DNA of 64,000 nt from a virus. The stretch spans positions 1-64,000 of the IMG/VR virus record IMGVR_UViG_3300032322_002033, one strand, 5' to 3'. The position numbers and the translations under genes are program-made. Below the pieces are notes generated by a model. That model did not search any database. It was given only the letters and a program-made list of their open reading frames with translations, and was not told the DNA's origin. Of this stretch, positions 40,123 through 61,489 are shown one piece after another (positions within the stretch are counted from its first letter, which is position 1; the number at the start of each line of letters is the position of its first letter).

Positions 40123-41880
40123 ATGGCTCAACAGAATATTAATCAATATAATTTTAAAAAATGGTTTATCAAATCGGTTCCAAAAAATAACGATTTAAGT
40201 CTGGCGTCGGATGAGGTAGACTTTAATCAAGAAGTTATTTTTTCTACAGAGTTGATAGGGTTAAATGATGGTAATCGATTACCTATACATTTTGATTTAA
40301 ACAATTCGGGCAGTTCTCAACTGTTTACAATTAATTATGGTGATTATTACACAGGTAATACTCTTGTATCTTTAAATTATTATAACCCTAATAATGACAA
40401 TTTAAATTGTTATACCTCATCGACATTATGTGACATAGGTTTAACAGGTGTTGATAATGGTTTAACTACTCAAATATCAGGTGAAACCCTGTATTATACT
40501 ATGGGGGTATATACTGGAGATACAAAATGGGATAGATACCATTATGATAGAAGAATGAAATTAATTCCTGTGTCTTATGGTACTAACGAACTAGTAGAAT
40601 TAGTACTAACTTCAGATATTAGTGCCGGCTCAGTTATTGTGAATTATGTTTTTTCAGCAAGCACAAATGTTAAAACTAATGTCTCAATATCATTTACTCA
40701 GTCAATTGGTAGGGAAGACAATACTCCTCTAGTGGTTACTACAGGGGTTACAATTTTTTCAGGAACATCAACAGGGTCAACAACTGTTGTGTTTGATGCG
40801 AGTTTTTCTAATTTAAATCGAACAAGTAGTTTTGAAAATGTGACAATATCGGGAGTTAAATACACACAACCCATTGTTCTCAAAGAAGATACAAAATTCG
40901 AAGTACCTGTGTGCGAACAATTTTTAACTAATGAATTGAGTAATATTTTAACAACTGAAAATAGTGATAATATAATTACTGAACTTGATGGTTGTTATAA
41001 TTGTTATTCTGGATTACAAACATTAAATGTCGGATATAGAACTGGTGCAATTGTTTATAATAGCGTTGATAACACAATTTACGTGGCAGCGGTAGAAAGC
41101 CCATATGTTTTTATAATTGACCCTTTAAACTTTACTGTTTCTGATACCGTAACGTTAAGTCAATCTTCTTCGTATTATAATTATATGGCTTATTATTCAG
41201 GAACAAATTCAGTATATGGTAGTTATTTGTTTAGTGATAACACAATTGGTGTTGTTTCATCAAACACTGAAGATAGTACGTTATCAATTTTTGTACCTAG
41301 AGGATTAACTGTACAACCAAATGAACAAAGATTATATGTTGGCGGGACAGGTAGGGTTAGATATGTCGATTTAAATACTCTAACAACACATACCGGTGTC
41401 TCATTAGGCTCAGCATCATTCGAATCAGTTTATAATAGTGTTGACAATACAATATATTTTGCAAAATATATTGCAGGCCAAGTTGCAGTTTACGATTGTT
41501 CAACAAGTAATGTAACTACCAATATTACTGTTGGGAAAACTCCATATAACTTACAATTTAATCCATTACTTAATGTTGTATATGTACTTAATGAAGGTGA
41601 TGATAGTGTTTCGGTAATTGATTGTAATACAAATATAGTAATTGCAACAATTACAGGGATGACTAACGTGTTATCAATTTTGTATATACCTAATACGACA
41701 AAACTTTTAGTTAGTAATCTAAATGGAGTTGTTTATAAAATAAATTGTTCTAACAACACAATTACTTGTTCTCAGGATTTAGGTACTAATATACCTCAAA
41801 TGACATACAATCCAAATGATGGGTTTGTATATGTGAGTGATTATAACGAAACAGCAACTATGAGAAGATTCATACCGTAA
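40123..41880 (+). CDS. Virion protein with C-terminal YVTN-like beta-propeller
   Basis: YNSVDNTIY repeats, VYVLNEGDDSVSVIDCNTNIVIATI, LTTENSDNIITE linker. Confidence 0.7.
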   Translation: MAQQNINQYNFKKWFIKSVPKNNDLSLASDEVDFNQEVIFSTELIGLNDGNRLPIHFDLNNSGSSQLFTINYGDYYTGNTLVSLNYYNPNNDNLNCYTSSTLCDIGLTGVDNGLTTQISGETLYYTMGVYTGDTKWDRYHYDRRMKLIPVSYGTNELVELVLTSDISAGSVIVNYVFSASTNVKTNVSISFTQSIGREDNTPLVVTTGVTIFSGTSTGSTTVVFDASFSNLNRTSSFENVTISGVKYTQPIVLKEDTKFEVPVCEQFLTNELSNILTTENSDNIITELDGCYNCYSGLQTLNVGYRTGAIVYNSVDNTIYVAAVESPYVFIIDPLNFTVSDTVTLSQSSSYYNYMAYYSGTNSVYGSYLFSDNTIGVVSSNTEDSTLSIFVPRGLTVQPNEQRLYVGGTGRVRYVDLNTLTTHTGVSLGSASFESVYNSVDNTIYFAKYIAGQVAVYDCSTSNVTTNITVGKTPYNLQFNPLLNVVYVLNEGDDSVSVIDCNTNIVIATITGMTNVLSILYIPNTTKLLVSNLNGVVYKINCSNNTITCSQDLGTNIPQMTYNPNDGFVYVSDYNETATMRRFIP

Positions 41881-41913
41881 AAAATAAAATATATTTATAA
41901 ATAAAATTAAAAA

Positions 41914-42894
41914 ATGTCAAATATTAAAATATCACAGTTAACTCAGTTTACTGGTTCATCAAGTAATACGTGGTTAGTTATAAATAACTCAGCTCAAACT
42001 GAAACGTTTAAAATAACAAGAGAAACCTTATTATCAGGATTAATACAATGTTCAAATGTTATTGCGAGCGAATCACTACAGGCGAATGAAATTTTCCCAT
42101 CAGATGATGTAGATTTAAATATAAGTACAAGAACTAACACTGGCACCAAAGGGATTAATTTAATGACCGGACCAAAACCTGGTGGTCTCGGGTATATTAG
42201 AATTAAAATCACATCCGGAGGTACGGTAGGTATTAATACAGATACACCAACTGCTCAACTTGATGTGTCAGTTCCAACAGGAAGTACGGTTGGATTAAGA
42301 GTTTCAGGTAATTCAAATACTGACATGGTTAGAATTACGCAAGTAGGAACAGGACATACTTTTGTTGTTGAGGATTCTCAAAATCCTGATAGTACACCAT
42401 TTGTCATAAGAAATGACGGTAAAGTGTATATGGGAACTTATACTGAAGACACCTCATCACTACTTAATGTTGGAGGTAACGCCCATTTTTGGGGTAATGT
42501 TTTTTTTACGGGAACCGCTAATGTCGCAATCCAAAATGCAGTTCCTGGAAGAACTTTAATAAATTTTGCATCAGTTGGGAATTCCTATTTTAATAACGGT
42601 AATTTAGGTGTTGGTACAATATTACCTGACGCCAGATTAGACGTAACCTCAACAGGAAGTACGGTTGGGTTAAGAGTCTCAGGTAACTCGTCAACTGACA
42701 TGGTTAGAATTACTCAAACAGGTAGTGGGAATGCTCTTATAGTTGAAGGAAATATAATATACCCGTCTCCATCTACTCCACCTGTAAGTAGTGGTAGTAC
42801 CGGAACAAAAGGTACTGTGACATGGGACGGAAGTTATTTTTATATCTGTGTTGATACTAATACTTGGAAGAGGTCACAATTATTATCTTGGTAA
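41914..42894 (+). CDS. Tail-fibre-like protein
   Basis: MSNIKISQL N-terminus, G.VG..T..P...LDV repeats, C-terminal WD..Y.YIC..TNTWKR motif. Confidence 0.7.
   Translation: MSNIKISQLTQFTGSSSNTWLVINNSAQTETFKITRETLLSGLIQCSNVIASESLQANEIFPSDDVDLNISTRTNTGTKGINLMTGPKPGGLGYIRIKITSGGTVGINTDTPTAQLDVSVPTGSTVGLRVSGNSNTDMVRITQVGTGHTFVVEDSQNPDSTPFVIRNDGKVYMGTYTEDTSSLLNVGGNAHFWGNVFFTGTANVAIQNAVPGRTLINFASVGNSYFNNGNLGVGTILPDARLDVTSTGSTVGLRVSGNSSTDMVRITQTGSGNALIVEGNIIYPSPSTPPVSSGSTGTKGTVTWDGSYFYICVDTNTWKRSQLLSW
42275..42713 (+). repeat. Internal direct repeat (about 64 nt, period 375 nt)
   Basis: CAACAGGAAGTACGGTTGG...CTGACATGGTTAGAATTAC at 42275 and 42650. Confidence 0.8.
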
Positions 42895-42932
42895 TAAAAA
42901 AGTCCAAAGTATTTATATAAAAATAGTTTTCA

Positions 42933-44690
42933 ATGTCAAGAAGATTTTCTGGAAATACCAAAGAAACCGTATATAATATTGTATCAAAAACGGGTAATAC
43001 TATAGGGTATTATAACCAACTTTACGGAGGGTTTTACCAAGGATTTTTTAAACTATTCGGATATGACTATGAAGTATTTCCGGACAGAACTAATAAAGGT
43101 TGGTCTGTTGAGATGTTATTAAGAGCGAGACAAGAAGATGAGTTTTATCATTTAGAGAATCAAACTTATTTAAATGAAGTTTACCCTAATAACAAGAATA
43201 CTTTTTTTTATTTTGGTACAAGAGCTGAGAATAAATTTTATCATCATGCGGCAGGTTCACCCGCGACAGATACGGGGTATACAAGAGTTACGGCAAGTCT
43301 AAGTGGATGTTTTGAAACTTGCGCATGTTCAAACACAGGAGTCACCAACTCTCGATGTGTTGAAGTCTATGAACCTTTAACATATCTACCACAACATAAT
43401 ATTGATTGTAATTGCGGTTGTGGTTCATCAACAACGGAAGTTCCTAATTCAGATAAAGACCCATTATTTGACACTATGTCAAATAGTTTTTCATTAAAAT
43501 TATCAGGTGACCCAAAAAACCCAAAAATATGTGTCAGAGTTTTAAAATTTACGGGAGGGTGTGAAGTAACAGGTACTTGTTCAACAACAGGAATTACATA
43601 TGCAACAGGTTATACAGTTTCAGAGTATTGTTCATCAAAACAAATTTACGATTATTGCCAGGTCGCAAACGATGATTATTTAAATAAAGAGCATTGGTTT
43701 TTAGTTGATTGTGTTTGGGAAAGAAATGAATATTTTGATACATGTGATTTATATTATAAAGGTGGGCTCGGTCTGATTAGTGAAACTAAATATGTTGATT
43801 CATTATCACAAAATACGGTTAATTTAATTTCCCCACCAATTACAAATGGGGAAGTAGTCGCTGAAACTATAGAAGTTATTGAGTTGAATGAAAGATGGTT
43901 AACTGAAAAAGACCACAGACTTGGTTCTTTAAAATTATATGTTAATGGTAAATTGTTTTATGTTATTAATGGATTTGAGGAAATTATACCAAGAGGATTA
44001 AATACTGAAAAAGAAAAACAATTAGGTGTACCTTTTAATCTTTCTTGGGGTGGAGGAACTCAAGGACTTAGAGAAAGTTTAACTTTGGTATCTTGTAATG
44101 ACAACACAGATTACCAGCAAGACCCTGAGGTAATGCCAAACCAAACATTATCAGGTACCTCATTATCCGCATTAACAACAAATATATTTATTGAACCTAA
44201 TTTTGCAGGAAGTTTTGATGGTGCCATAAGTCAATTTAGGATGTATACTGAACCATTATCTTATCCTGAAATTATACACAACTTTGATATATTAAAAGAA
44301 AATTTTTCTTTATTTGATTGGAAATGTCCAAATTGTAATGATTTTTTGGTAAATGATATTGTTAGTGGAGTTACTAATAATGTTTTAACTTTTTCTTCGG
44401 CAACTTTTTCAGCATATAGTTATGACTTGAGTTGGAAACCTTTAAATCAAAATTTTAGAATTTCAATCACAGGTAATACATCAATACCATCATTCCCATA
44501 TTCAATAAATTTATTAGACCCATTAATAATTCCTTACTTTGGTGGTGGTAGTTATTATTTTTATTTTCAACATATAGACCAAACATTACGTGTTGATGTT
44601 CCTGATAATGTAGTTAACGTATTATTATTTGGAGGTGATAATGTGTTAGATGTTGGTAATGATGCATATTTATTAATAGAACCTTTATAA
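42933..44690 (+). CDS. Cys-rich virion protein with LamG/concanavalin-like elements
   Basis: WSVEMLL, LKLYVNGKL, FDGAISQFRMYTEPLS..EI.HNF; CNCGC; TATTTAT at 42910-42916. Confidence 0.65.
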   Translation: MSRRFSGNTKETVYNIVSKTGNTIGYYNQLYGGFYQGFFKLFGYDYEVFPDRTNKGWSVEMLLRARQEDEFYHLENQTYLNEVYPNNKNTFFYFGTRAENKFYHHAAGSPATDTGYTRVTASLSGCFETCACSNTGVTNSRCVEVYEPLTYLPQHNIDCNCGCGSSTTEVPNSDKDPLFDTMSNSFSLKLSGDPKNPKICVRVLKFTGGCEVTGTCSTTGITYATGYTVSEYCSSKQIYDYCQVANDDYLNKEHWFLVDCVWERNEYFDTCDLYYKGGLGLISETKYVDSLSQNTVNLISPPITNGEVVAETIEVIELNERWLTEKDHRLGSLKLYVNGKLFYVINGFEEIIPRGLNTEKEKQLGVPFNLSWGGGTQGLRESLTLVSCNDNTDYQQDPEVMPNQTLSGTSLSALTTNIFIEPNFAGSFDGAISQFRMYTEPLSYPEIIHNFDILKENFSLFDWKCPNCNDFLVNDIVSGVTNNVLTFSSATFSAYSYDLSWKPLNQNFRISITGNTSIPSFPYSINLLDPLIIPYFGGGSYYFYFQHIDQTLRVDVPDNVVNVLLFGGDNVLDVGNDAYLLIEPL

Positions 44691-44694: not shown

Positions 44695-45189
44695 ATGGCA
44701 CAGGGAAAAACTTTAAATGAATTAACAGGGACAACATCAGTAAATCAACAAGATTTACTTTTAATATACCAAACAGGTAGTACTAAAAACGTATCAATAA
44801 GTGCATTGACTCAGAATATTGTAAACAAAAATTTTACAGGAGGTACTATGTCAGTAACTGGTACATCTTCTTTTGAGGGTAATGTAACAATTAATGTTTT
44901 AAGTGTTACTGGGGAAACAATTTTTTCAGATAACATCACAGGACAAACAGGGACGTTTAATGAGATAACTATTACCGGAAGTACCACAATTAGTGGTAAT
45001 ACTGAAATTGGAGGTAATGTGAGAATATCTAACGATTTAATTTACCCAACACCATCAGTAGTACCAAGTTTAAGTGGTGGTAGTTATGGAACTACAGGAA
45101 CTACAGGAACAATTTCATGGGATTCAGATTACATATACGTATGTGTTGCAACTAATACATGGAAAAGAGCTCAGTTATTAATATGGTAA
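44695..45189 (+). CDS. Short fibre-like protein, paralog of 41914
   Basis: KTLNELT N-terminus; shared C-terminus WDSDYIYVCVATNTWKRAQLLIW. Confidence 0.7.
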   Translation: MAQGKTLNELTGTTSVNQQDLLLIYQTGSTKNVSISALTQNIVNKNFTGGTMSVTGTSSFEGNVTINVLSVTGETIFSDNITGQTGTFNEITITGSTTISGNTEIGGNVRISNDLIYPTPSVVPSLSGGSYGTTGTTGTISWDSDYIYVCVATNTWKRAQLLIW

Positions 45190-45248: not shown

Positions 45249-46496
45249 ATGAGTAAAATATTCATACAAGTCGCGTCATATCGAGACCCCCAACTTATCC
45301 CAACAATAAAATCGGCGATAGATAATTCCAAAAATCCTGAAAATTTGGTATTCGGTATTTGTCGTCAATATCACCCTTCTGACAAGTTTGATGATTTAGA
45401 AGAATATCGAAATGATGGTAGATTCAAGATTATTGATGTGAATTATAAAGATTCTAAAGGTGCTTGTTGGGCAAGACATCAAATCCAACAATTATATGAT
45501 GGTGAGGATTATACCTTACAGATAGATTCCCACATGAGGTTTGCTAAAGATTGGGATTTTGAAATGATAAAAATGGTTAAAGATTTGAAAAAGAAAGGTT
45601 ATAAAAAACCATTACTAACTTCTTATGTTTCATCTTTTGACCCTGATAATGACCCAAATGGTAGAACTATGGAACCTTGGCAAATGGCTTTTGATAGATT
45701 TATTCCTGAAGGGGCGGTATTCTTTTTACCTGAAACAATACCTAATTGGCAAAATTTAGACTCACCTGTAACCTCAAGATTCTACTCGGCACATTTTTGT
45801 TTTACCCTTGGTAAGTTTGCTAAAGAAGTACAACACGACCCTGATTTTTATTTTCATGGTGAAGAAATATCTATTGCGGTTAGAGCGTTCACACATGGTT
45901 ATGATTTATTTCACCCGCATAAAGTTTTAATTTGGCATGAATACACAAGAAAAGGTAGAGTTAAGCAGTGGGATGATGATTTAAAATGGTTTGAGAAAAA
46001 TAATGTTGCCCATCAAAGAAACCGAGCTCTATTTGGAATGGATGGAGAAGCTGAAATTGAATTAGGTAAATACGGATTTGGGAAAGTTAGAACATTAAAA
46101 GATTATGAAAAATACTCAGGTCTAAAATTTTCAATACGAGGAGTCCAACAACATACATTAGATAAAAAATACCCACCTAACCCATATAATTTTAATAATG
46201 ATGAGGAATGGGAAAATTCATTTGCAACAATTTTTAAACATTGCATAGATGTTGGGTATTCAGATGTACCTGAAGATGATTATGATTTTTGGGCAGTTGC
46301 ATTTCACGATGAAAATGACAATACGATGTATCGATTAGATGCGACAAAAGAAGAAATAAAAAGAATGAAAAATGACCCCGATGGATATTGTAAAATATGG
46401 AGACAATTTGATACTTTAAAGAAACCAAAGTATTGGGTTGTTTGGCCACATTCAGAATCTAAAGGGTGGTGTAATAGAATAACAGGTAACTTATGA
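45249..46496 (+). CDS. GT60-like polypeptide N-acetylglucosaminyltransferase (Skp1 Gnt1-like)
   Basis: IFIQVASYRDP, SKGACWAR, LQIDSHMRF..DWD, FHGEEI..AVRAFTHGYD, WHEY. Confidence 0.85.
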   Translation: MSKIFIQVASYRDPQLIPTIKSAIDNSKNPENLVFGICRQYHPSDKFDDLEEYRNDGRFKIIDVNYKDSKGACWARHQIQQLYDGEDYTLQIDSHMRFAKDWDFEMIKMVKDLKKKGYKKPLLTSYVSSFDPDNDPNGRTMEPWQMAFDRFIPEGAVFFLPETIPNWQNLDSPVTSRFYSAHFCFTLGKFAKEVQHDPDFYFHGEEISIAVRAFTHGYDLFHPHKVLIWHEYTRKGRVKQWDDDLKWFEKNNVAHQRNRALFGMDGEAEIELGKYGFGKVRTLKDYEKYSGLKFSIRGVQQHTLDKKYPPNPYNFNNDEEWENSFATIFKHCIDVGYSDVPEDDYDFWAVAFHDENDNTMYRLDATKEEIKRMKNDPDGYCKIWRQFDTLKKPKYWVVWPHSESKGWCNRITGNL

Positions 46497-47209
46497 ATAT
46501 AGATTTTTGTTTTGCAACATTTTGTTTTGGTGATAGGTATTATTCCCAAACAAACACACTAATTAATGATTTGAAAATATCAGAATTAAAACCAAATTTA
46601 ATTGTGATTACTGATAATCCTGATAAAATATTAATTGAAGATTTTGTTAAAGTTTTTAATGTCTCAGAATATTCTGAGGATTATTTAAACTATGCTAACA
46701 ACTATTACGATTTTGATTTTTCAGTTAAACGATTTACAGTAAAGAAAGCATTTGAATTAGGTTATAATAAAATTATTTTGGTTGATACTGACATTCGAGT
46801 CAACTATGGGTTATTCACTCATGAAAATATTTCCAATTCGTTTGAAGATAATTCAATTTTAGGTTCAGTCACTTACAACTTTGATGAACAAATAACTACT
46901 AATAGTGAATTAGGTAAACGTTTAATGTATTATGAAAATCATTTTGGTTATGAAATAAATAAAAATGAATTAAACTTTATGCCTGAGGATTGTATTCAAT
47001 ATTTGAATATTGATACTGATAAAATGGTTAATTTTTTAAATGATTGGGACAATTGTATTCAAGTTAAGAATAGTCATGGGTTAAGGAACATACCTGCGGG
47101 AAATATTGATGAAATGTGTTTTAGTGCAATTAAGAATGGTATTAAAGTGGGTAACAATTCAAATAAATCTTTAAACATAGTTTTTGCACAACATGACAAA
47201 TGGTACTAA
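46493..47209 (+). CDS. Putative GT-A transferase
   Basis: VITDNP, FSVKRF, IILVDTD (DxD). Confidence 0.55.
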   Translation: MNIDFCFATFCFGDRYYSQTNTLINDLKISELKPNLIVITDNPDKILIEDFVKVFNVSEYSEDYLNYANNYYDFDFSVKRFTVKKAFELGYNKIILVDTDIRVNYGLFTHENISNSFEDNSILGSVTYNFDEQITTNSELGKRLMYYENHFGYEINKNELNFMPEDCIQYLNIDTDKMVNFLNDWDNCIQVKNSHGLRNIPAGNIDEMCFSAIKNGIKVGNNSNKSLNIVFAQHDKWY

Positions 47210-48047
47210 AATAGTTAGTTCAATTTATGAACTAAATTATGTCAAAGAAAGAAATGGTGAAAGATATAAAAACTTTCCATTACTTGTTGCGACTTTAAAA
47301 AACATAATTTTTCCCGAATACAACTATGTAATTTATACTGACCAAAATTCGTATGAAAAATTCAATTTACAATATGAATTTAATAAACCAAATGTTGAAT
47401 TTAAATTCAAAGAACTTAATACGTCAGAATCTTGTGAATTAATTGATAAAATCAGACATGATGAATTATCAGGGGGTATGAACTATGATAGAATTTATTG
47501 TGTTAACAATTATTTAGAAGTCGTAATTAATAAGTTGAAGTTTTTAATTGATGAGTCAGTTGATTGTGAAAATATATTTTGGATTGATTCTGGTTTGATT
47601 GGAACATCTTGTCATGACGGATGGAGAGATTACATGGCTCCACTAATTAACTCAAAAAATTTTTTAGAAAAAATTTTGGAAAAAATCCAAAAACATGGAT
47701 TTATACATTTAAAAGGTAATTCAATTGTTATGAATTATGAAATGGTTGATAGATTCCAAGAGTTGTATGGTGTAGAATTAAAGGTAGTGCCAGGATGTCT
47801 ATTTGGTGGAAAATCTGAAAAAGTTAGACATTTATTAGACGGATATTTAGACATTTTTACAAGTTATCTTATCAAATATAATCAGCTAATAAGTGAACAA
47901 GAAGTCCTTACGGCTATTACAGGTCAAAATAAAGAAGAATGTTATGCTTTTGAATTTGGAGATTGGTTAGACTTACAAAAAGGATTTTTAAACATTTTAG
48001 ACATTTATGATGAATCAAAGTACACAAGAGAAAGATGTTATGTTTAG
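47193..48047 (+). CDS. HtrL/YibB-like protein
   Basis: VIYTD, IFWIDSG, GCLFGG, SEQEVL. Confidence 0.65.
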   Translation: MTNGTKIVSSIYELNYVKERNGERYKNFPLLVATLKNIIFPEYNYVIYTDQNSYEKFNLQYEFNKPNVEFKFKELNTSESCELIDKIRHDELSGGMNYDRIYCVNNYLEVVINKLKFLIDESVDCENIFWIDSGLIGTSCHDGWRDYMAPLINSKNFLEKILEKIQKHGFIHLKGNSIVMNYEMVDRFQELYGVELKVVPGCLFGGKSEKVRHLLDGYLDIFTSYLIKYNQLISEQEVLTAITGQNKEECYAFEFGDWLDLQKGFLNILDIYDESKYTRERCYV

Positions 48048-48603
48048 TCTTAATATTGTATGTACAAGTATTGGAAGACAAACTCTACCAAGGTTAATCG
48101 ATTCATTTGTTAATCAACTAAAAAGTAATGATATTTTTACAATCATATCAGACATAAATCATGATTTTGTTTCTGAGGTTTTATCAAGATACAATTTTAA
48201 TTTTACTGTTAATCATATCATTAATAATGGTGAAAGAGCGTGGAAATATGGTCATCCATTAATTAATAAACACGTAAACAATTTAGATGGTGATTTTATA
48301 ATGTTTGCTGACGATGATGATAGATATACCGAAGGAGCGTTTGATGTAATTAGAGATAATGTTAAAGACAAAAATAAATTATATATTTTTAAACATAAGT
48401 GGGGTTCCGATATTAATTGGAAGTTAAAAGATTTTACAATAGGTAATGTTGGAAAATGTATGGGGGTAATTCCGAACACTCACAATCTTCCAAAATTTAG
48501 AGAAGATGTTTTTGGTGATGTTTATTTTTATGAGGAAATTGGTAACATGTTTGAAAGTGAGTTTATTGACCACATAATTTATAAAGTTAGGGATACAGAA
48601 TGA
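48040..48603 (+). CDS. Glycosyltransferase family 2-like
   Basis: TSIGRQTLPR, DFIMFADDDD, GDVYF; start re-called at MFSL. Confidence 0.75.
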   Translation: MFSLNIVCTSIGRQTLPRLIDSFVNQLKSNDIFTIISDINHDFVSEVLSRYNFNFTVNHIINNGERAWKYGHPLINKHVNNLDGDFIMFADDDDRYTEGAFDVIRDNVKDKNKLYIFKHKWGSDINWKLKDFTIGNVGKCMGVIPNTHNLPKFREDVFGDVYFYEEIGNMFESEFIDHIIYKVRDTE

Positions 48604-50293: not shown

Positions 50294-50659
50294 ATGGAGT
50301 TTAGTATTGGTAAAAATTCAACCCTTCCCATATTAAAAATGCAGGTCGTTAATAACGGCAAAACTGAATTAGATGAATTTAATCAGGTGATTGAAAATTC
50401 TGCAATATTTTTTTCTATGAAAAATATGAAAAATGGGTCTTACAAGATACTAAATTCTCCCGCAGGATTTGTCGAAAGAACCAAAGAAAATATGGATGCT
50501 CCAACTGAATATTATGTGTATTATAGATTTAGTTCAGGTGACACAAGAACTGCTGGATTATATGAGGGTGAGTTTATGTTTAGAAATGAAGAGGGTACAT
50601 ATTTGTTACCAATCCGAGAAAAACTTACAATAAAAATTAATGAAACAAATGTGATATAA
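50294..50659 (+). CDS. BppU-N-like baseplate/fibre adaptor protein
   Basis: F.I.KNSTLP.L, YY.F...DT..AG.YEGEF, LPIREKL. Confidence 0.55.
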   Translation: MEFSIGKNSTLPILKMQVVNNGKTELDEFNQVIENSAIFFSMKNMKNGSYKILNSPAGFVERTKENMDAPTEYYVYYRFSSGDTRTAGLYEGEFMFRNEEGTYLLPIREKLTIKINETNVI

Positions 50660-51648
50660 TGGATTTTTATATTAAGAAAAACGCAACATTACCACAAATT
50701 CAGGTTGAGATATCTAAAAACGGAGTAAGTGATTTTAATGTAAATCAAAATCTATCCGAAATAATTGATGCGTACATTTCAATATTCAATCCTGATAATA
50801 ATCAATATATTGTTGCATCTAAAAATTGTACCATAACTCAAAGTGCGTCAACTACCAACCCAACTGATATATCATATTATTTAAATTATCAATTAACAAA
50901 TAGGGAAACAAAAAAACCTGGTAAATATGAAATTCAGATTTCTTTAACTGACACTAATGGTGAAATAATTTTACCATTACAAGAAAAAGTTTATTTGAAT
51001 ATTTTGGAAAGTTTTGCAATACAGGATTACCCATTTTCATCAAATTATATTGTTGATTTACCTTGTTGTGGTCCTGTTGAGGTTCTTCCTCCTGTTGTAC
51101 CTGTTAAAGGTCCTGCATTATTATTTATTGAACCTATTAGTGAGGCTAGTTTTGTAGGTAATTACTTACATTTACGTGAGGCTTCTTTTTATGGTTTCTC
51201 TAATGGTACTTCACCACAATCAGGTTCTGATATTGGAAAGTATATGGACATGTATGCTGAATATATAAATTCATTACCTAATGTTATTACACAAGACATT
51301 CCACAATCTTCAGGTGGGTTTGACTCATTTGGAAACGCAATTGTTCAATATAATTTCTATACAACAGAAGTAAGTGCAAATACCGTTAGTGAATTTGCAT
51401 GGTACACATGGGTTATACCAAGTGAATCTATTGGGGATTTAAAACAATCTGAAATTGCTTACGGATACGAGTTTGATAACCTTAGCACTGAGTCTATGAA
51501 CAATACGATTTACCAATATAATTTTTATTATACAGGTACATCTTATTCTGTAGGGCATTACTCGATGTATACCACATTCCAATCAAATAACTTTAATCTC
51601 AATAACACTAATAGAAGTATTTATTTTAAAGGTCAAACGGTACAATAA
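50659..51648 (+). CDS. Structural protein with N-terminal domain paralogous to 50294
   Basis: MDFYIKKNATLP...ETKKPGKYE...LPLQEKV. Confidence 0.6.
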   Translation: MDFYIKKNATLPQIQVEISKNGVSDFNVNQNLSEIIDAYISIFNPDNNQYIVASKNCTITQSASTTNPTDISYYLNYQLTNRETKKPGKYEIQISLTDTNGEIILPLQEKVYLNILESFAIQDYPFSSNYIVDLPCCGPVEVLPPVVPVKGPALLFIEPISEASFVGNYLHLREASFYGFSNGTSPQSGSDIGKYMDMYAEYINSLPNVITQDIPQSSGGFDSFGNAIVQYNFYTTEVSANTVSEFAWYTWVIPSESIGDLKQSEIAYGYEFDNLSTESMNNTIYQYNFYYTGTSYSVGHYSMYTTFQSNNFNLNNTNRSIYFKGQTVQ

Positions 51649-51650
51649 TT

Positions 51651-53258: not shown

Positions 53259-53265
53259 AATAGTA

Positions 53266-55068
53266 ATGAATAGAATAACAGGAAGTACTACAATATCGTT
53301 GAACGTTGATGTGTTAGCGTCAGGTCCGTGGGACGCTCGCTCAATAATACCATATTACACAGGACTTACGGATAATGTAACATTACCTTATCCATACAAA
53401 GGTATGGTAGTTACTGTCTATAATGACCCTGATATTACAAAAAATGGGGTTTATTATTGTACTAACAAGGGTACCAATATTCCATTTGCAAATTCTGATG
53501 CAACTTGGACTAAAGTAGGTTCTGACTCTCAAACAATCACAGGTAATTCTTGGACATATTCTTCAGATACTTTAAATCTACTATATTCAACTGGTGGAAC
53601 AATCCCAATCACAGGTTTTACATTTGTTAATACAACAGGTGATACAATATTAGGACAATTAACAATATCTGCCAATACCAATCCATTAATTTTATCAGGA
53701 TTAACTGGTAGTACGTCATCAGTTGATACTAACACAAAATTTTTAACATTAGACCAATTTAATAATGTAATATATCAAACGGGTGTTACATCTACAGTTA
53801 TTACAGGTAATACTTGGACATATTCTTCTGACACTTTAAATCTACAAATGTCGACAGGTGGTACGATACCCATAACTGGATTTACATTTGTTAACACAAC
53901 AGGAGATACAATTCTTGGTAAGTTGATAATATCGGCAAACACTAATCCTCTTAATTTATCAGGTTTAACAGGGTCAACAAGTGCTGCCACAATAGATACA
54001 AAATTCCTTACTTTAGATGAATTCAATAATGTAATTTATCAAACAGGTTTAACCGCATCTTTACCTTACACAGGTGGTACTTCATCAGCGGGGACTGAAG
54101 GAACTACCGCAATTACCGCAACATTAATAGTATCAAATGAATCTACAGGAACTACAATTGATTTATCAGGGGCATTAACATTTGAAAACCCACTACCAAC
54201 AAAAGAATCTTTTGGAAGTATTGGTCAAAACACAACTTTTTTTGCCGGAGGTAAAACATTCCAAGAAATAATTCAGGCAATGTTTTATCCTGTAATACCG
54301 CCTACAATAACGGCAATTTCAACAAGTTTTACTCGAAATACAACTGGTGGGGGATTTAGTCCTTCACAATTACAAATTGCAGGAACAAGTGGTAATGTTA
54401 CTCTTACCGCAACTTACGTAAGTGGAACATCAATTGGTGGTGCTTACGTTGCAAAAACAGGTCCAGTAACTTCATTTGTATTTAGTGGATTTACTGAACC
54501 AACACCTGCTGTAACAGCATACACTTCTTTAAGTACTACCGCATATACTGTAAACTCAAATTATTTAGTAGTTTCAGGATATAACACTTGGAATTGTCAA
54601 ATAAATTTTGCACCAGGTCAACAGCCATTAGATGATAGTGGAGCGCCATACTATGGGTCAGGTACTCCGGACTTTATTAACGGAGGTACTAAAACACCCG
54701 CCAATATTGTTATAGAAGGAGTATTTCCAATATCGGCAACATCAGACTCAAACGCATTTTATACTCAACAATCATTAGTATCTATGAAAACTAATGCAAC
54801 CTCAACGTTTAATACTGCAGATGAAACCACATCAGATAGACAAGCATTTATATTACCGATAATGCTATACAATAAATTACAAACTATGGAATTATATGAT
54901 GGTAATAGTCAAAGATATGTGACGGTTACTCCGTCTGAATTTTATACAATTACAGATTTTGGTCCGGTATATATTAACAGTACATATTCAAGTGTTGCGT
55001 ATAAACAATATAAATATGATATAAGAGGTCAACACGGGGCTCAATTAATAAGATTAACATTTAGCTGA
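53266..55068 (+). CDS. Tail-fibre-like protein with two 88-aa repeats
   Basis: PWDAR...YPYKGMVV N-terminal domain, repeats, C-terminal domain shared with 51651. Confidence 0.7.
   Translation: MNRITGSTTISLNVDVLASGPWDARSIIPYYTGLTDNVTLPYPYKGMVVTVYNDPDITKNGVYYCTNKGTNIPFANSDATWTKVGSDSQTITGNSWTYSSDTLNLLYSTGGTIPITGFTFVNTTGDTILGQLTISANTNPLILSGLTGSTSSVDTNTKFLTLDQFNNVIYQTGVTSTVITGNTWTYSSDTLNLQMSTGGTIPITGFTFVNTTGDTILGKLIISANTNPLNLSGLTGSTSAATIDTKFLTLDEFNNVIYQTGLTASLPYTGGTSSAGTEGTTAITATLIVSNESTGTTIDLSGALTFENPLPTKESFGSIGQNTTFFAGGKTFQEIIQAMFYPVIPPTITAISTSFTRNTTGGGFSPSQLQIAGTSGNVTLTATYVSGTSIGGAYVAKTGPVTSFVFSGFTEPTPAVTAYTSLSTTAYTVNSNYLVVSGYNTWNCQINFAPGQQPLDDSGAPYYGSGTPDFINGGTKTPANIVIEGVFPISATSDSNAFYTQQSLVSMKTNATSTFNTADETTSDRQAFILPIMLYNKLQTMELYDGNSQRYVTVTPSEFYTITDFGPVYINSTYSSVAYKQYKYDIRGQHGAQLIRLTFS
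53533..54048 (+). repeat. 2 x 264-nt (88-aa) repeat
   Basis: WTYSSDTLNL units 264 nt apart (53548 and 53812). Confidence 0.9.
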
Positions 55069-55069
55069 T

Positions 55070-56992
55070 ATGAGTAGGACATTAGGAGCATTTGATTATA
55101 CACAAAACTATGAAGTATTAAATTCGTATCCTTTAGATGCTAGAATGAAAACCGGTTTATATGCCGATTTACAAGATAACGTAACAATACCTTATCCATA
55201 CACAGGAATGATTGTTGCCGTCACAGATGATGGGTCAAATAACGGATTATATATTTGTACTAATAAAGGAACCGCAATACAATATGCTAATGGTACTACA
55301 ATTTGGGAAAGAGTTGGTAGCCCAATTATAACTGGCAACACTTGGACTTATTCTTCTGACACTTTAAATTTACAAATGTCAACTGGAGGTACAATATCTC
55401 TAACAGGGTTTACTTTTGTCAATACAACAGGTGATACAATATTAGGTCAGTTAATAATCTCAGCGGACACTAACCCATTAATTTTATCAGGACTTACTGG
55501 TTCAACAACTTCTGTAGATACAGACACTAAATTTTTGATATTAGATGTTAATAATAACGTGATTTATCAAACGGGAGTGACCTCAACGGTAATAACTTCA
55601 AACACTTGGACATATTCTTCAGATACTTTAAATTTGGAAATGTCAACAGGTGGGACAATCCCAATCACAGGTTTTACATTTGTCAATACAACAGGTGATA
55701 CTATACTTGGTAAATTAACAATATCTGCGGATACTAATCCACTTAATTTATCAGGATTAACCGCAACAACTACGTCAGTTGACACTAATACGAAGTTTTT
55801 ATCTTTAGACTCAAATAATAACGTAATAATTCAAACAGGGGTCACTTCAACCGTTATTACCAGTAACACTTGGACATATTCTTCGGATACTTTAAATTTA
55901 CAAATGTCGACAGGTGGTACAATTCCGTTAACTGGATTTACATTTGTTAATACGACTGGTGACACAATTTTTGGTAAATTGGTAATATCTGCTGACACTA
56001 ATCCTCTTAATTTATCAGGGATAACCGCAACAACAACTTCAGTAGATACTAATACAAAGTTTTTATCTTTAGATTCAAATAATAATGTTATTATACAAAC
56101 TGGAGTCACATCAACGGTAATAACTTCAAACACTTGGACATATTCTTCGGATACTTTAAATTTACAAATGTCGACCGGAGGGACAATTCCGTTAACTGGA
56201 TTTACATTTGTTAATACGACAGGTGACACGATACTTGGTAAACTAACAATATCTGCAGATACCAATCCATTAAATTTATCAGGATTAACTGCCACAACAT
56301 CAGCACTCACAGTTAATACTAAATTCTTATCTTTAGATGAAAATAATAATGTAATTATTCAGACGGGTATTAGTGTAAGTAACGCATCCGCATTATCTGG
56401 TGGTGTTACAAACTATCTTGCAAAATGGACAGGAACAAGTGCAATAACGACAACATTATTAAGAACAACTGATGATGGTTCAAAACTTGCGATAGGATTA
56501 CCAAGCGGTGATACAATAAGTTATCCTTTAATGGTTTCTGCCGACACAAGTCCCGTATCATTTAAAGGAATAGTATCAAATTCTTTTGACCCTTCAAATC
56601 AATATTTGTATGTTGATACTTCATCGGGTGAGATTAAATCAAGTGTTATTTCAGAGCAGACAGGTATTACGGTTTATATAAGCGCAAGAACAAATAGCGG
56701 TCAAGTAGACTTCATTCAAACAGGTTCACCTGAAAACTTTAGAAGTGTTTATTACAACTATCACTTAAAAAGTTTAAGTAGTTATTCTATAAGAAGTGGT
56801 ACTTTACAAGCGGTTTGGGGGACAGGAGCGACGGCAGATTTAAATTATACTGACCAAGGCCCTTTACAAATCATAGAAGGAGCTAATACTATTAGTGGAA
56901 TAAATGTGTCAGGTGTGACAGGAGGTATTAGTGTGGTTATTGAGGTTGCAAATGGTAATTGGGAATTTAAAGCATATAGAGTAAAATTATAA
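55070..56992 (+). CDS. Tail-fibre-like protein with four 88-aa repeats
   Basis: PLDAR...YPYTGMIV N-terminal domain, four repeats, NYLAKWTG. Confidence 0.7.
   Translation: MSRTLGAFDYTQNYEVLNSYPLDARMKTGLYADLQDNVTIPYPYTGMIVAVTDDGSNNGLYICTNKGTAIQYANGTTIWERVGSPIITGNTWTYSSDTLNLQMSTGGTISLTGFTFVNTTGDTILGQLIISADTNPLILSGLTGSTTSVDTDTKFLILDVNNNVIYQTGVTSTVITSNTWTYSSDTLNLEMSTGGTIPITGFTFVNTTGDTILGKLTISADTNPLNLSGLTATTTSVDTNTKFLSLDSNNNVIIQTGVTSTVITSNTWTYSSDTLNLQMSTGGTIPLTGFTFVNTTGDTIFGKLVISADTNPLNLSGITATTTSVDTNTKFLSLDSNNNVIIQTGVTSTVITSNTWTYSSDTLNLQMSTGGTIPLTGFTFVNTTGDTILGKLTISADTNPLNLSGLTATTSALTVNTKFLSLDENNNVIIQTGISVSNASALSGGVTNYLAKWTGTSAITTTLLRTTDDGSKLAIGLPSGDTISYPLMVSADTSPVSFKGIVSNSFDPSNQYLYVDTSSGEIKSSVISEQTGITVYISARTNSGQVDFIQTGSPENFRSVYYNYHLKSLSSYSIRSGTLQAVWGTGATADLNYTDQGPLQIIEGANTISGINVSGVTGGISVVIEVANGNWEFKAYRVKL
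55325..56368 (+). repeat. 4 x 264-nt (88-aa) tandem repeat
   Basis: ACTTGGAC anchors at 55340, 55604, 55868 and 56132. Confidence 0.95.
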
Positions 56993-58398
56993 TGGGAATT
57001 TTTAGTGGAATAGTAAACTATCAAAATTTTGAGGTAGAATCAGGTATAACATCTAATTTTTTTATATCTCCAACTATCTCCGCTAATACAATTTCAGGTG
57101 GGGCATTATCGGCTTTATATGTTGCTAGCGGAAAAGTTACAAATCAGGAGTTTAAATATTTGAGTGGAACTACATCAAGTATTCAAATTCAAATAAATTC
57201 TTTAGCAAATAAAAACGAACAGTTTGTTTCTTATAGTGCGAGTACTAATTTAGATAATGATAAAAGTAGTATTGCGGGAAATGCTATAACATTTAGTCAA
57301 GGAAATAAAGAACTACTTATTAATACCACATTAACCAGTACTGAATTTGTTTGGATTAATTTTAATATGACGGACATATCCGTAACATCAATAACTAATT
57401 GGAATCCAACAGGTTTTCAAACAAATAATAATAATAGAGCTACACATATAATAATTGGTGGGGGGTCAACATCTGTCTATCCTTCAGTAATTTCAGGATT
57501 AACTGGTGGTACTAATGGTAGAATTGCAATAATAAGTAATTTGGGTACAGGATTTCCTGTGATATTTGAAAATAATAGTTCAAAATGTCCGACAATTTGT
57601 AAATTTAATTTTTCAAATAACGAGGCATATTTTTTACCTCATAACGCAACTATGACTTTAATATATGATGGAGAGTCTCAGTCGTGGAAGGAATTTTATC
57701 CATTAACAAGAGAAAGTATGTTTTCTACATACCAAGACTTTAACTATGTTGGTCGAAATACTAATTTTGGAAATGGTGCTTATGGTAGATTTTATTCATC
57801 GCAAGGAGTAATTGCATATACAGGTTTTAATGATACTAATAGTGTTATTTCTTTTAGGGGTACGAGTACTTATGCAGCACCTGGATTATCCGCAAGCTAT
57901 TGTGCCGGAAGAGTCCCCCAAAGCTTAGGAGGTTCACAGTTCACTTTTTTTTTATCAAAAGTTGCAATTGATAATGATTTTGCAGGTCAAATGACTTTTG
58001 AAAACACAGTTGCGGTATTAAATAACGGCAAAGTCAATAATTATGGACAGGTGTGTGGTGCGGTAGGTACGGCAGCTAGTTCTAATCAGCATTGGATGAT
58101 TTCTGGGAATAATTGGGTAAATATGGCAACAGTTGCTGGGTCGATAGTTCAAGTTACGCCTACAAATTTATTGGCATCTGATAGTGTGTTTAATTTTGTG
58201 TATTTAGGTATTGCAAATAATAATACAAGATGTTTTTGGTTTTATTCTAAAGACGGAAATGAATATGAAATAAGTAACATTAGAGCACAAGCATCTAATA
58301 ATTTTATGGCAGGATTTGGGGCAGGTGTAAGGATAGTTACGCCAACAACAATCACACCAACTTTATTTGTTGACTGGTATGGAATGAATTTAAATTAA
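56992..58398 (+). CDS. Putative receptor-binding/fibre protein, paralog 1
   Basis: EFKYLSGTTSSIQIQIN, GLTGGTNGR. Confidence 0.65.
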   Translation: MGIFSGIVNYQNFEVESGITSNFFISPTISANTISGGALSALYVASGKVTNQEFKYLSGTTSSIQIQINSLANKNEQFVSYSASTNLDNDKSSIAGNAITFSQGNKELLINTTLTSTEFVWINFNMTDISVTSITNWNPTGFQTNNNNRATHIIIGGGSTSVYPSVISGLTGGTNGRIAIISNLGTGFPVIFENNSSKCPTICKFNFSNNEAYFLPHNATMTLIYDGESQSWKEFYPLTRESMFSTYQDFNYVGRNTNFGNGAYGRFYSSQGVIAYTGFNDTNSVISFRGTSTYAAPGLSASYCAGRVPQSLGGSQFTFFLSKVAIDNDFAGQMTFENTVAVLNNGKVNNYGQVCGAVGTAASSNQHWMISGNNWVNMATVAGSIVQVTPTNLLASDSVFNFVYLGIANNNTRCFWFYSKDGNEYEISNIRAQASNNFMAGFGAGVRIVTPTTITPTLFVDWYGMNLN

Positions 58399-59949
58399 AT
58401 GGGAAAAATAGTTAAAACATATGGAAATTTATCAGTATCCTCGACAGCTAATACCTTGTCCTTTACCTCAAATACAATAAATGGTGGGCTATTATTAGGG
58501 AATATTGATGCGTCATTTATAGGAACCGGAGATTCTTTGACTAACAAATCAAATTTTGTAACCAATATTGAATTTATTTATTTGTCAGGATTAACAGGTC
58601 ACGTGCAAACACAGATAAATGAAAAATCTTATAGTAGTCTGTCGTATCTAACAACTTTATCATCCCCAAACTTAATTAATTCAAAAATAATTTCCGCAGA
58701 TACTAATATAAAATTTGTAACAAGTTCAACAGAAATAGTAATTAATCAGTGGATAGGAGCGTTAGAATTCGGTTCAATTAGTGTATCAACATCGGGGGAT
58801 AGCTCATATTCTGTAAATAATTTAACTTTGACTGGTTGGAACGATGTATACCCTAATAGGGCATTACAAATTAAAATAAATCCTCTATGTGTCTTGAAAT
58901 TAACAGGTTTGGTTGGGGGTTCTGACGGCAGAATGGTAACAATAACAAATGTTGGGAATTTTTTAATAATTATTGAAAATTTAAGTCAGAATAGTAACTC
59001 TGACAATAATTTTTCACTTTACAATAAAACCAGTTATTTTTTGGGTAAGAATTCATCAATTAATTTTTTATACAATAATAATTTAAAAAAATGGGTACAA
59101 AATCTATCGTATCCTAATAACGAATTTTTAATTTACGATGATTTTACAAAGTCTTATTTTGCAGATATTACAACAACTTCATTATATTCAGGTTTAACTT
59201 CAGCATCAACACTATCAACAATAATTTATAGTGGTGGAACACAACCAGGAGCTACTTTTGTACCTGGATTTAGAACCTTTTCAGGATGTGCCACAGGTGC
59301 TGTCGAATTATATAAAAATTTTCAAAATAATTCAACAAATTCAACATCTTCGATATCTATAGGTTTTAGGGATAATTATAAAGGATTTCAATCTAAAACA
59401 GGATATTCTATGACAATTATTTCTAAATTCACCTCAATTAAAAACGTTCCCCCATTTTTAGGTCCTTTGGATAATTGGGCATTAACTTTAGGTACTAAAA
59501 ATGTTAATATTTTAACAAATTACTCAGCAACCACAAATAGTAATACCATATTTCCAAATTTTAATGGAGGTACTTTTTGGTTGTTTGATTATAGTGGTAG
59601 TCCACAATATGCAAGATTTGCGGTTCAGGACACTTCAAACTCAACAATCGTAAAAAATTCAACTTTTAATTTATTAGATATTACAGGTAACACTTTTAAA
59701 ACTTTTGGGGTTTATTCATTAACACCTTCAGGGTCTTCTTTTGGTAGTTCTACTTTTTTTTGGTGTGTAAATTCAGGAAGTTCTGAAAATTATATAATAG
59801 AGCCACCAATATTCCATACAGGAGGGACTATAAATGGATATCCTTCACTTACTTTTTACGGTGCTTACAATTATAGTGGTAATAGTAATTTTAATAATGT
59901 ATCTAAAATTGTTGTGGACAATTTTGGATTTGATTTTAAAAAAATATAA
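58399..59949 (+). CDS. Putative receptor-binding/fibre protein, paralog 2
   Basis: EFIYLSGLTGHVQTQIN, YPNRA, GLVGGSDGR. Confidence 0.65.
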   Translation: MGKIVKTYGNLSVSSTANTLSFTSNTINGGLLLGNIDASFIGTGDSLTNKSNFVTNIEFIYLSGLTGHVQTQINEKSYSSLSYLTTLSSPNLINSKIISADTNIKFVTSSTEIVINQWIGALEFGSISVSTSGDSSYSVNNLTLTGWNDVYPNRALQIKINPLCVLKLTGLVGGSDGRMVTITNVGNFLIIIENLSQNSNSDNNFSLYNKTSYFLGKNSSINFLYNNNLKKWVQNLSYPNNEFLIYDDFTKSYFADITTTSLYSGLTSASTLSTIIYSGGTQPGATFVPGFRTFSGCATGAVELYKNFQNNSTNSTSSISIGFRDNYKGFQSKTGYSMTIISKFTSIKNVPPFLGPLDNWALTLGTKNVNILTNYSATTNSNTIFPNFNGGTFWLFDYSGSPQYARFAVQDTSNSTIVKNSTFNLLDITGNTFKTFGVYSLTPSGSSFGSSTFFWCVNSGSSENYIIEPPIFHTGGTINGYPSLTFYGAYNYSGNSNFNNVSKIVVDNFGFDFKKI

Positions 59950-59950
59950 T

Positions 59951-61489
59951 ATGTCAGAAATAGGTCAAATAAGAGGAAGATTTGTTAGTTCAAACTTTAG
60001 TGGGTTTTCAAACAGTCTTAGTTCAACTACAATATCAGCCACTACTTTTTTTGGTAATATTAGTGCCAAATTTATAGGTACGGGTACAACAATTGGGGAT
60101 ACCCCAAATTTTGTGACTGACTTAGAATTTTCATATTTATCCGCAACGACCTCTAACATTCAAACTCAAATCAATACTAAAGCGAGAAAATTAGACCCAT
60201 TTTTAACTTATTCTTCAGAGACTAATTTAACAGATTACCGACAAATTTCGGCCGGAACAAACATAAATTTTACATCATCCACTACTAATTTTGGAATTTC
60301 TGCAAAATTTGATTTATTTAACCCAAATATAGTTTATGATACACCAACAATTCCCTCAAATAAAATAATTTTAGATTATTTCCCAAATGGGTGGTCTAAC
60401 ACCTATCCAAACAGAGCAACTCATTTAATAATTAACCCAACAGGAGTAACCCAAATATTTAATTTGAGTGCAAACACATTCGACTCACAATTAAATAGAT
60501 TTGTAACAATCACAAACGTTGGTAACTATGTAATAATATTAGGAGGTACCCCATCATCAAGGGTTGGAAAATTTGAGGGAATCCCCACAATAGTGATGGG
60601 TGGAATGGCAAATTCAAGTTACACAACTGGATTTTATTTAATGCCTAATAAAAGTGTAAGTTTCGTTTGGTATAATTTTAATTGGTATATGATAAATTCA
60701 TATTTGGCGGATAAACAATGCGGTCTGGATGCTAATGATTTATTTTTAGTTGTACCTGATACCGCAAATTCCCCTTTGAATAGCGGATTAAATCTACAGT
60801 CAAAAAACTACACAATGTGGTGTGACCCAAGTCTAACTCGTTCTTGTTTTGGTGGGGACCATGGTGCCCTCTTAAACGGATATATTGCATTTGGGGCACC
60901 AAATAACGGTTCGTGTTCTATAGGCTCTTTTTCTAATACCGCATTTCAATCTCAATCAGGTATGTCTTTTTTATACACAGTAATGACTAGAGCTAAATTT
61001 GTGGTGGATAATTATCGAACCACTAAAATATTTGGAACTCAAAATAGATTATCAACGACCTCATATACTGCATTAACAAATAATTTCCAAACCATCCCTA
61101 ATCTTGGTGGGGGGACATTTATGTTAAATGATTACAGACGTAACCAAAACTATTGGTCCATGTGCGTACAAACTCAAGATGGTTCTACAATTGTCTCATC
61201 GTCTACTTTGCCTTTTTCAGCATTGACCTCAGAAACTGTTGCGGTACATTTTGGATTATACACAATAAATCCATCAGGTAGTAGTTTAGGTAGTACAACA
61301 TTTTTTTGGAGAAAGACTTCCGACACGTATTGGACTATTGAAAATGAGATATTTCACACCGGTTCAACTATCAACGGTAACCCTTCATATGTATTATACG
61401 GGATTACAGGTAACAGCTCATCTATATCGACACGAGAATGTCAACAAGATTTGTATTATATGGGACACGCGGTTGGTTATTTAAATTGA
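59951..61489 (+). CDS. Putative receptor-binding/fibre protein, paralog 3
   Basis: EFSYLSATTSNIQTQIN, YPNRA; start re-called at ATG 59951, directly after the previous stop. Confidence 0.65.
   Translation: MSEIGQIRGRFVSSNFSGFSNSLSSTTISATTFFGNISAKFIGTGTTIGDTPNFVTDLEFSYLSATTSNIQTQINTKARKLDPFLTYSSETNLTDYRQISAGTNINFTSSTTNFGISAKFDLFNPNIVYDTPTIPSNKIILDYFPNGWSNTYPNRATHLIINPTGVTQIFNLSANTFDSQLNRFVTITNVGNYVIILGGTPSSRVGKFEGIPTIVMGGMANSSYTTGFYLMPNKSVSFVWYNFNWYMINSYLADKQCGLDANDLFLVVPDTANSPLNSGLNLQSKNYTMWCDPSLTRSCFGGDHGALLNGYIAFGAPNNGSCSIGSFSNTAFQSQSGMSFLYTVMTRAKFVVDNYRTTKIFGTQNRLSTTSYTALTNNFQTIPNLGGGTFMLNDYRRNQNYWSMCVQTQDGSTIVSSSTLPFSALTSETVAVHFGLYTINPSGSSLGSTTFFWRKTSDTYWTIENEIFHTGSTINGNPSYVLYGITGNSSSISTRECQQDLYYMGHAVGYLN

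Follow-up and report, generated by a model that had tools for sequence, protein, structure and literature searches.

A glycosyltransferase cassette among fibre-like genes

The stretch analysed here, hereafter the window, comprises 64,000 nucleotides (nt; positions 1 to 64,000 of IMG/VR record IMGVR_UViG_3300032322_002033) and is a fragment of an uncultured freshwater T4-like myovirus with ca. 30% guanine plus cytosine (GC). Five plus-strand genes at 45249-50267 lie inside a region of fibre-like genes (40123-61489) and form a candidate protein-glycosylation cassette. A preliminary description of this DNA had recognised all five as transferase-like; judged from sequence, this is certain for one open reading frame (ORF 45249) and solid for another (ORF 48600), while the three in between remain leads:

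45249..46496, plus strand: GT60-family glycosyltransferase, putative polypeptide threonine/serine (Thr/Ser) O-GlcNAc-type initiating enzyme (PF11397, phrog_24687, D93-S94-H95)
46493..47209, plus strand: candidate GT-A-like transferase, variable middle of the cassette (lead from an Atlas structure match)
47184..48047, plus strand: candidate HtrL_YibB-like transferase, variable middle (lead from Atlas language-model features)
48007..48603, plus strand: small GT2-like transferase, variable middle (weak match to PF00535)
48600..50267, plus strand: conserved last cassette gene with an N-terminal HtrL_YibB-like domain and a C-terminal half of ca. 300 amino acids (aa) (Pfam, TIGR02192)

The product of ORF 45249 matches PF11397 ("GlcNAc", family GT60) with an E-value of 1.2e-71 and 242.5 bits, for a cut-off of 21 bits, over residues 52-294 plus an N-terminal piece, and phrog_24687 with an E-value of 8e-167. 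A hydrophobic strand precedes the D93-S94-H95 triplet, which does not vary among 12 close homologues nor, in an alignment among homologues, among 12 diverse ones of 39-73% identity. The protein has no transmembrane segment, and searches of PDB sequences with it, as a single sequence and as a profile, returned nothing useful. GT60 and GT27 are the GT-A families in which DxH replaces DxD, and they O-glycosylate Ser/Thr residues of polypeptides in a common mode (PMC7185993); characterised GT60 members place N-acetylglucosamine (GlcNAc) on Thr, Ser or hydroxyproline (Hyp) of proteins (PMC9472816, PMC7185993). Membership of ORF 45249 in GT60 is clear on sequence grounds, and transfer of GlcNAc to a polypeptide hydroxyl is predicted from the family. 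The PF13640 prolyl-hydroxylase domain was found neither in the fragment nor in four relatives that are 97-100% complete, which makes the Skp1/Hyp mode unlikely and favours Thr/Ser acceptors.

For the last gene of the cassette, the N-terminus matches HtrL_YibB (E-value 5e-15) and TIGR02192 (E-value 5e-17), and Pfam gave no match for the C-terminal half. The Atlas model of ORF 46493 resembles nucleotide-diphospho-sugar transferases/GT8 (TM-score 0.79), with no match in Pfam. In the case of ORF 47184, 24 of 30 language-model feature matches correspond to HtrL_YibB clusters and a weak similarity to ORF332 of phage XacN1 was detected, and ORF 48007 matches PF00535 (GT2) with an E-value of 1e-4 and 22.6 bits, which is below the cut-off of 23.3. 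PDB sequence searches with ORFs 48600, 47184 and 46493 yielded nothing useful.

Homologues of the GT60 enzyme number more than 7,400 at E-values below 1e-10, the closest hundreds being 75-79% identical, and at least 567 IMG/VR loci carry a GT60 gene of this clade (these loci were retrieved with a GT60 alignment as query, a single-protein query of viral contigs giving none). The GT60 gene comes first and a 48600-like gene last in 81 of 87 clade loci, the remaining loci being truncated, and between these two ends occur one to eight variable, non-homologous genes; in one relative (L003), a homologue of the UDP-galactopyranose mutase gene glf is found directly behind the GT60 gene, inside the cassette. 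In 56 of 82 loci, Thr makes up 12% or more of the ORF located directly upstream of the GT60 gene on the same strand (median 14.5%); 10 of 330 ORFs reach this 12% in the complete relative G002.

Threonine-rich neighbours and the [ST][GAS]xT motif

The genes that flank the cassette in the window are the following, with the number of [ST][GAS]xT motifs in each where counted:

40123..41880, plus strand: fibre-like protein, 9 motifs; conserved N-terminal module of ca. 150 aa and beta-propeller-like C-terminal half
41914..42894, plus strand: fibre or tail-like protein, 13.5% Thr, 7 motifs; phrog_17312 tail protein, E-value 2e-7
42933..44690, plus strand: conserved neighbour upstream of the cassette, 11 motifs; 1420 homologues, beta-rich core with cysteine-rich inserts
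44695..45189, plus strand: 164-aa protein directly upstream of GT60, 18% Thr, 9 motifs (5.5 per 100 aa)
50294..50659, plus strand: conserved 121-aa domain protein; in most relatives it comes after the cassette, often with a fused Thr-rich tail
50659..51648, plus strand: protein paralogous to the 50294 domain, its C-terminal part being variable; relatives have mucin-like tracts here
51651..56992, plus strand: three paralogous fibre-like proteins (51651, 53266 and 55070) with 16, 28 and 43 motifs and 264-bp tandem repeats
56992..61489, plus strand: second paralogue family (56992, 58399 and 59834) with 7, 11 and 18 motifs

Composition-preserving shuffles of the 12 plus-strand ORFs around the cassette predict 38.8 copies of [ST][GAS]xT, and the actual number is 162 (4.2x, z 23). 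The z-score is inflated because these ORFs form paralogue families and are not independent; when near-identical repeat copies are collapsed, 112 distinct motif contexts are left. The enrichment reaches 7.7x for TGxT, and permuted controls are flat ([GAS][ST]xT 1.1x, [ST][GAS]Tx 1.4x, [ST][GAS]xxT 1.2x). The ratio is 1.55x in the remaining 51 ORFs, and the terminase, the portal, the family-B DNA polymerase (PolB) and all sugar enzymes have 0-1 motifs each. The 88-aa unit in which nine motifs had been noticed corresponds to a 264-bp tandem repeat, present in 3.9 copies at 55337-56356 (ORF 55070) and in 1.9 copies at 53539-54048 (ORF 53266). The preliminary description, which had seen by eye motif-packed flanking proteins, this repeat, and a scarcity of the motif in terminase, polymerase and metabolic enzymes, was therefore accurate on these points. 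In T4, ratios for gp34, gp35, gp36, gp37, gp12, wac and hoc range from 0 to 2.9 and derive from very few motifs (less than 1 per 100 aa); with fibre, whisker and Hoc proteins thus devoid of enrichment, the motif is not simply a property of fibres in general.

The composition of the motif is constrained as well. At position 4, Thr is enriched 4.3x, Ser 1.5x and valine or isoleucine ([ST]Gx[VI]) 1.2x; for [DN]GxT the ratio is 0.86x, without enrichment. The residue before the motif is hydrophobic in 57% of contexts versus 34% in the background. Taken together, these values suggest that both hydroxyls matter and that the motif is located where a strand passes into a turn. Of the 11 motifs of ORF 42933, 6 are retained as a motif at their alignment position in 10 or more of 13 homologues, a pattern that fits fixed structural elements and fixed modification sites equally well.

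The same description had gone further and read [ST][GAS]xT as a phage-defined sequon, primed and extended by phage enzymes; taken strictly, the GT60 enzyme would recognise it and each motif would be a glycan site. The pattern-specific enrichment, the need for both hydroxyl positions and the conserved sites of ORF 42933 speak for this, as does the finding that (T-x)n tracts of more than 14 aa, as expected of a mucin-type substrate, do not exist in the 94-kb fragment (the longest alternating [ST]x run is 14 aa), which leaves the motif-rich proteins as sole Thr-rich candidates close to the cassette in the 32% of the genome that is seen. Autotransporter heptosyltransferases, which act in the cytoplasm and glycosylate residues at the turns of beta-helix repeats, would offer a parallel. 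Against it, relatives whose GT60 is 64-78% identical often have as neighbours proteins with (T-x)n tracts of hundreds of residues and 27-40% Thr, in which only 0-5 motifs occur; conservation of the enzyme does not track the motif, and the co-occurrence of motif and transferases across related phages that a sequon would entail is often lacking. Elsewhere the motif count is supplied by collagen-like G-T-S repeats, which score as [ST][GAS]xT, and the frequent hydrophobic residue before the motif is what a strand-turn junction would give. Finally, the acceptors of characterised GT60 enzymes are Thr-rich mucin peptides or Skp1-Hyp, with no tetrapeptide code (PMC9472816). We consider a sequon in this strict sense improbable. 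Since mucin-like tracts of the (T-x)n type prevail among the Thr-rich proteins of relatives, we prefer to see in the motif a repeat or turn element that is specific to this lineage, happens to present hydroxyls and is possibly a local acceptor, rather than a recognition code.

Other GT60 lineages and alternative targets

Outside the clade of the window, association of GT60 with Thr-rich genes was found in several groups of loci. In a first cluster, with 32-45% identity to the GT60 of the window, an adjacent Thr-rich gene is present in 39 of 67 loci and the GT60 gene is often embedded among motif-dense or collagen-like G-T-S fibre genes; at locus L141, the upstream ORF (1153 aa), a fibre protein adjoining GT60, has long collagen-like G-T-S/G-S-S triplet repeats. 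In another one (cluster 3), the adjacent Thr-rich gene occurs in all 11 loci, some of which have two tandem GT60 genes. Viral contigs L209, L210, L215 and L217 carry two tandem GT60 paralogues directly behind a protein with up to ca. 640 aa of I-S-V-T-P-T-type repeats. On a contig with 59% GC, there is a 4-bp overlap between the GT60 start and the gene of a (T-E-T-V)n protein. Cultured GT60-positive phages include XacN1, Xoo-sp13, CM1 and RAS14, and four cultured Xanthomonas/Stenotrophomonas jumbo phages carry the GT60 and 48600-type pair. XacN1 itself keeps GT60 together with ORF330, 42% identical to ORF 48600, and encodes a T/P-tract protein 12 kb from GT60.

GT60 genes also occur in bacterial loci, 28 of 74 with a 48600-like partner. 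An adjacent Thr-rich ORF was found in 18 of these 74 loci versus 6% expected (binomial p of ca. 5e-7, uncorrected for relatedness). In metagenome-assembled genomes (MAGs) of Gemmatimonas (L237, L241, L246 and L247) and in Saprospiraceae (L225, L230 and L250), the GT60 and 48600-like pair lies behind a small protein with 13-17% Thr. Some Saprospiraceae MAG contigs encode a GT60 that is 66-68% identical to that of the window, which may reflect binned phage DNA or give a hint of the host.

A second group of sugar-related genes is located upstream in the window, on the opposite strand:

18548..35004, minus strand: second sugar island, with GT2, GT4-like, GT8-like, GT15-like and GT2_5 genes
18548..35004, minus strand: other genes of the island, encoding Glf, an epimerase, a GFO/IDH/MocA oxidoreductase, a hexapeptide acyltransferase and two methyltransferases
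31656-32759, minus strand: UDP-galactopyranose mutase (Glf), within the island

In G002 (80.3-97.9 kb), the ends of the island are conserved (homologues of 18548-22768 and of 33538) and the middle, ca. 14 ORFs, is wholly replaced. The 18-kb island thus appears to behave like a second hypervariable glycan locus, and it likely supplies sugars or extends glycans. No transmembrane segment was predicted in the ca. 20 sugar-related ORFs, and no 19-aa hydrophobic window of 1.6 or more occurs in any ORF between 18 and 50 kb. Over the same interval, Pfam gave no match to a flippase, an ABC exporter, a polymerase or a membrane priming transferase, the components of a lipid-linked surface-glycan pathway.

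These data bear on two alternative targets. In the first case, the motif would be purely structural (tight turns or Thr ladders) and the cassette would act on host envelope glycans, on host proteins or only on the 50294-type N-terminal modules. The location of the motif within 88-aa tandem repeats with regular strand-like spacing and the fixed positions of the conserved ORF 42933 sites agree with such a role, as do the persistence of the GT60 and 48600 pair without adjacent Thr-rich genes in the XacN1-like lineage and its frequent occurrence in bacterial chromosomes. Taken by itself, a purely structural motif is quite plausible. The alternative as a whole is unlikely, if worth keeping in mind: all the enzymes are soluble, and modification of host glycans is disfavoured because membrane and export components, lipid-carrier genes included, are absent; Thr-rich neighbours are found again in four divergent lineages of phages, and in bacteria more often than expected; T4 fibres do without the motif; and the family as such leads one to expect a polypeptide acceptor.

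In the second case, the cassette would glycosylate phage DNA (hypermodified bases) as protection against restriction. In the clade and in XacN1 the cassette adjoins the DNA polymerase gene and is near dUTPase and exonuclease genes, and DNA is a frequent substrate of phage glycosyltransferases (PMC12619734, discussion). On the other hand, the thymidylate-synthase-family gene scores as a true ThyA equivalog in 5 of 5 near-complete relatives (346.7 bits for a cut-off of 325) and not a hydroxymethylase, and GT60 is a protein-acceptor family. The known DNA glucosyltransferases belong to other families. A DNA target is accordingly regarded as highly improbable.

Virion context and candidate glycosylation of appendage proteins

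The T4-like affiliation of the window is based on the following markers, together with a PhoH gene:

188-1930: terminase
1973-3790: T4-type portal
5094-5813: prohead protease
7636-9495: gp23-type major capsid protein
61578 onward: family-B DNA polymerase

The IMG/VR record is 94,074 bp long with a CheckV completeness of 32%, and since complete relatives span 290-322 kb, the phage is a jumbo phage. A search of sequencing runs indicated near-identical DNA in lake and freshwater metagenomes from several studies and listed no RNA sequencing run with near-identical sequence. No cultured phage matched the region by megablast or ORF 55070 by tblastn.

The major capsid protein (619 aa) is matched by other gp23 proteins in two pieces with ca. 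52% coverage, which points to an insertion of ca. 250 aa; it contains 6 motifs versus 1.9 expected and has this internal insertion instead of the Ser/Thr-rich C-terminal extension that is a mycobacteriophage-type feature. In G002, an 883-aa protein with 18% Thr, 25 motifs and a 164-aa mucin-like run is encoded between terminase and portal (61011-63662), where the window has no gene.

Several features suggest that the proteins flanking the cassette belong to the virion. Their N-terminal modules are conserved and their distal parts hypervariable, as in receptor-binding fibres, and ORFs 41914 and 44695 have a common C-terminus, which in both corresponds to the phrog_17312 tail protein. The sequence TATTTAT, rarer than expected in the window on both strands (42 versus 62), occurs 11-33 nt upstream of ORFs 40123, 41914, 42933, 44695, 50294 and 51651 (e.g. 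at 40109, 44667 and 50274) and likewise upstream of the terminase, protease, scaffold and capsid genes; this distribution before head and fibre gene starts fits a late-promoter-like element. Before GT60, neither TATTTAT nor a terminator is present, and co-transcription of GT60 with the fibre genes is possible. Other approaches gave little. PHROGs returned no useful match for the fibre-like ORFs at 50659-61489 (six without match, and for 51651 a weak match of unknown function), nor did PDB sequence searches with ORFs 55070, 41914 and 58399. ORF 55070 has just 14 homologues in 5.8 billion proteins, and its AlphaFold2 model from the 14-sequence alignment has a mean predicted local distance difference test score (pLDDT) of 36.9. 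The model of ORF 42933 (43 sequences; pLDDT 56, predicted template modelling score 0.61), in which all conserved motif sites have a pLDDT below 50, gave in Foldseek against PDB weak matches to lectin-like jelly-roll receptor-binding domains (E-values of 2.7e-3 or higher, TM-score of ca. 0.2), a hint of a possible beta-sandwich.

Gene boundaries and module arrangements vary in this region. The N-terminal module of ORF 40123 (40123-40575) is fused to other C-termini in relatives, and directly to a 42933-type protein in L010 (7808-9958) and L031 (3597-5804); in the window, the module and 42933 are separate genes and a beta-propeller is inserted behind the module. ORF 59834-61489 as listed begins inside the preceding gene with a hydrophobic artefact, and its true start is probably the ATG near 59951 since homology to 58399 begins at residue 43.

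Overall, the GT60 family, the solubility of the enzymes and the Thr-rich adjacency make it somewhat probable that soluble phage enzymes O-glycosylate exposed Thr of the phage's own appendage proteins. That part of the preliminary description, in which phage enzymes glycosylate their own virion, therefore stands as a tentative proposal, detached from the motif as a code. From the directly established features (family membership, D-x-H motif, solubility, motif enrichment and synteny) we infer an acceptor, a sugar, a timing and glycans on virions, as follows. Genes 45249-50267 would form a soluble cytoplasmic protein-glycosylation cassette, in which the GT60 enzyme would initiate O-linked glycans at exposed Thr residues (or, with lower likelihood, Ser) in the phage's Thr-rich fibre or appendage proteins, at the time of their cytoplasmic folding and assembly. 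The next step may fall to the conserved 48600-type enzyme, and the glycan may be diversified by the exchangeable genes in the middle, with assistance from the 18-kb sugar island.

A number of observations weigh against this proposal. Within the clade, adjacency is largely inherited synteny and represents few independent observations. G002 has the same cassette of five genes; its flanks there consist solely of a 42933-like protein with 21 motifs and a 50659-like one that includes a mucin tract of 70 aa. Homologues of the window block 51651-59949 lie ca. 55 kb away in the tail region, indicating that the large fibre block adjoining the cassette is specific to the window. An adjacent Thr-rich gene is found in none of the 16 loci of the XacN1-like lineage, in neither of two small GT60 lineages, and is missing from 56 of the 74 bacterial loci. 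TATTTAT, the late-promoter-like element, is absent directly before GT60. The evidence that places the flanking proteins in the virion is weak, their location being deduced from gene content and sequence, and a literature search retrieved no paper in which GT60 is connected with phages or in which the fibres of jumbo phages are described as O-glycosylated. A more elaborate version, in which freshwater jumbo phages perform a eukaryote-like, mucin-type O-glycosylation of their own fibres in the cytoplasm, with beta-turn repeats having replaced mucin tracts in the present phage, phi-[ST]-G-x-T as acceptor and two hypervariable glycan loci giving strain-specific coats, is improbable as a whole.

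Comparison with known systems helps to situate the proposed O-glycosylation of appendage proteins. The protist GT60 enzymes, TcOGNT1/2 of Trypanosoma cruzi acting on mucins and Gnt1 of Dictyostelium acting on Hyp of Skp1, have the same PF11397 domain and DxH. In T. cruzi, these enzymes form GlcNAc-alpha-1-O-Thr on mucins, to which galactose and galactofuranose are added later (PMC9472816); similarly, the candidate acceptors of the phage are Thr-rich and Glf, which would supply galactofuranose, is co-encoded. As in the case of cytoplasmic Gnt1, the phage enzyme is soluble, but the PF13640 domain that would allow a Gnt1/Skp1-like mode is lacking in the four complete relatives. Unlike the protist enzymes, it is phage-encoded, would operate in the bacterial cytoplasm and is paired with a conserved HtrL_YibB-like enzyme, and its activity is a prediction.

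According to work cited in PMC12619734, virion glycosylation is established only for mycobacteriophages, in which capsid and tail-tube subunits were measured to carry glycans at their C-termini (Freeman et al. 2023, as reported there). In that account, phage-encoded transferases are thought to glycosylate the phages' own virion proteins in the cytoplasm, as proposed here, whereas the window, known from its genes, has fibre-like candidates, a GT60 initiator and probably freshwater Gram-negative hosts. The 2025 description of aquatic "moraphages" mentions core glycosyltransferases and assigns them no target (PMC12619734).

Viruses of eukaryotes and bacteria themselves provide other parallels. 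Giant viruses glycosylate their own particles, with glycans on the chlorovirus capsid and on mimivirus fibrils; they resemble the phage of the window in having large clusters of sugar-synthesis and transferase genes without export genes, clade-variable glycans and decorated surface fibrils, but infect eukaryotes and use different enzymes and linkages. Bacterial repeat proteins are also glycosylated in the cytoplasm, by autotransporter heptosyltransferases or on Thr of collagen-like BclA; in these systems, soluble transferases modify Ser/Thr on regular repeats or turns with no strict sequon, the differences being that the enzyme families are unrelated and the proteins bacterial.

The GT60 initiating family has until now been characterised only in protists. 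If the proposal is true, O-glycosylation of virion proteins would be common in abundant aquatic jumbo phages and not a mycobacteriophage curiosity, considering that this clade alone comprises at least 567 IMG/VR contigs and that close GT60 proteins exceed 7,400 in number. A strain-variable glycan coat on the fibres could then affect host recognition, stickiness towards particles and mucus, protease resistance and grazing losses.

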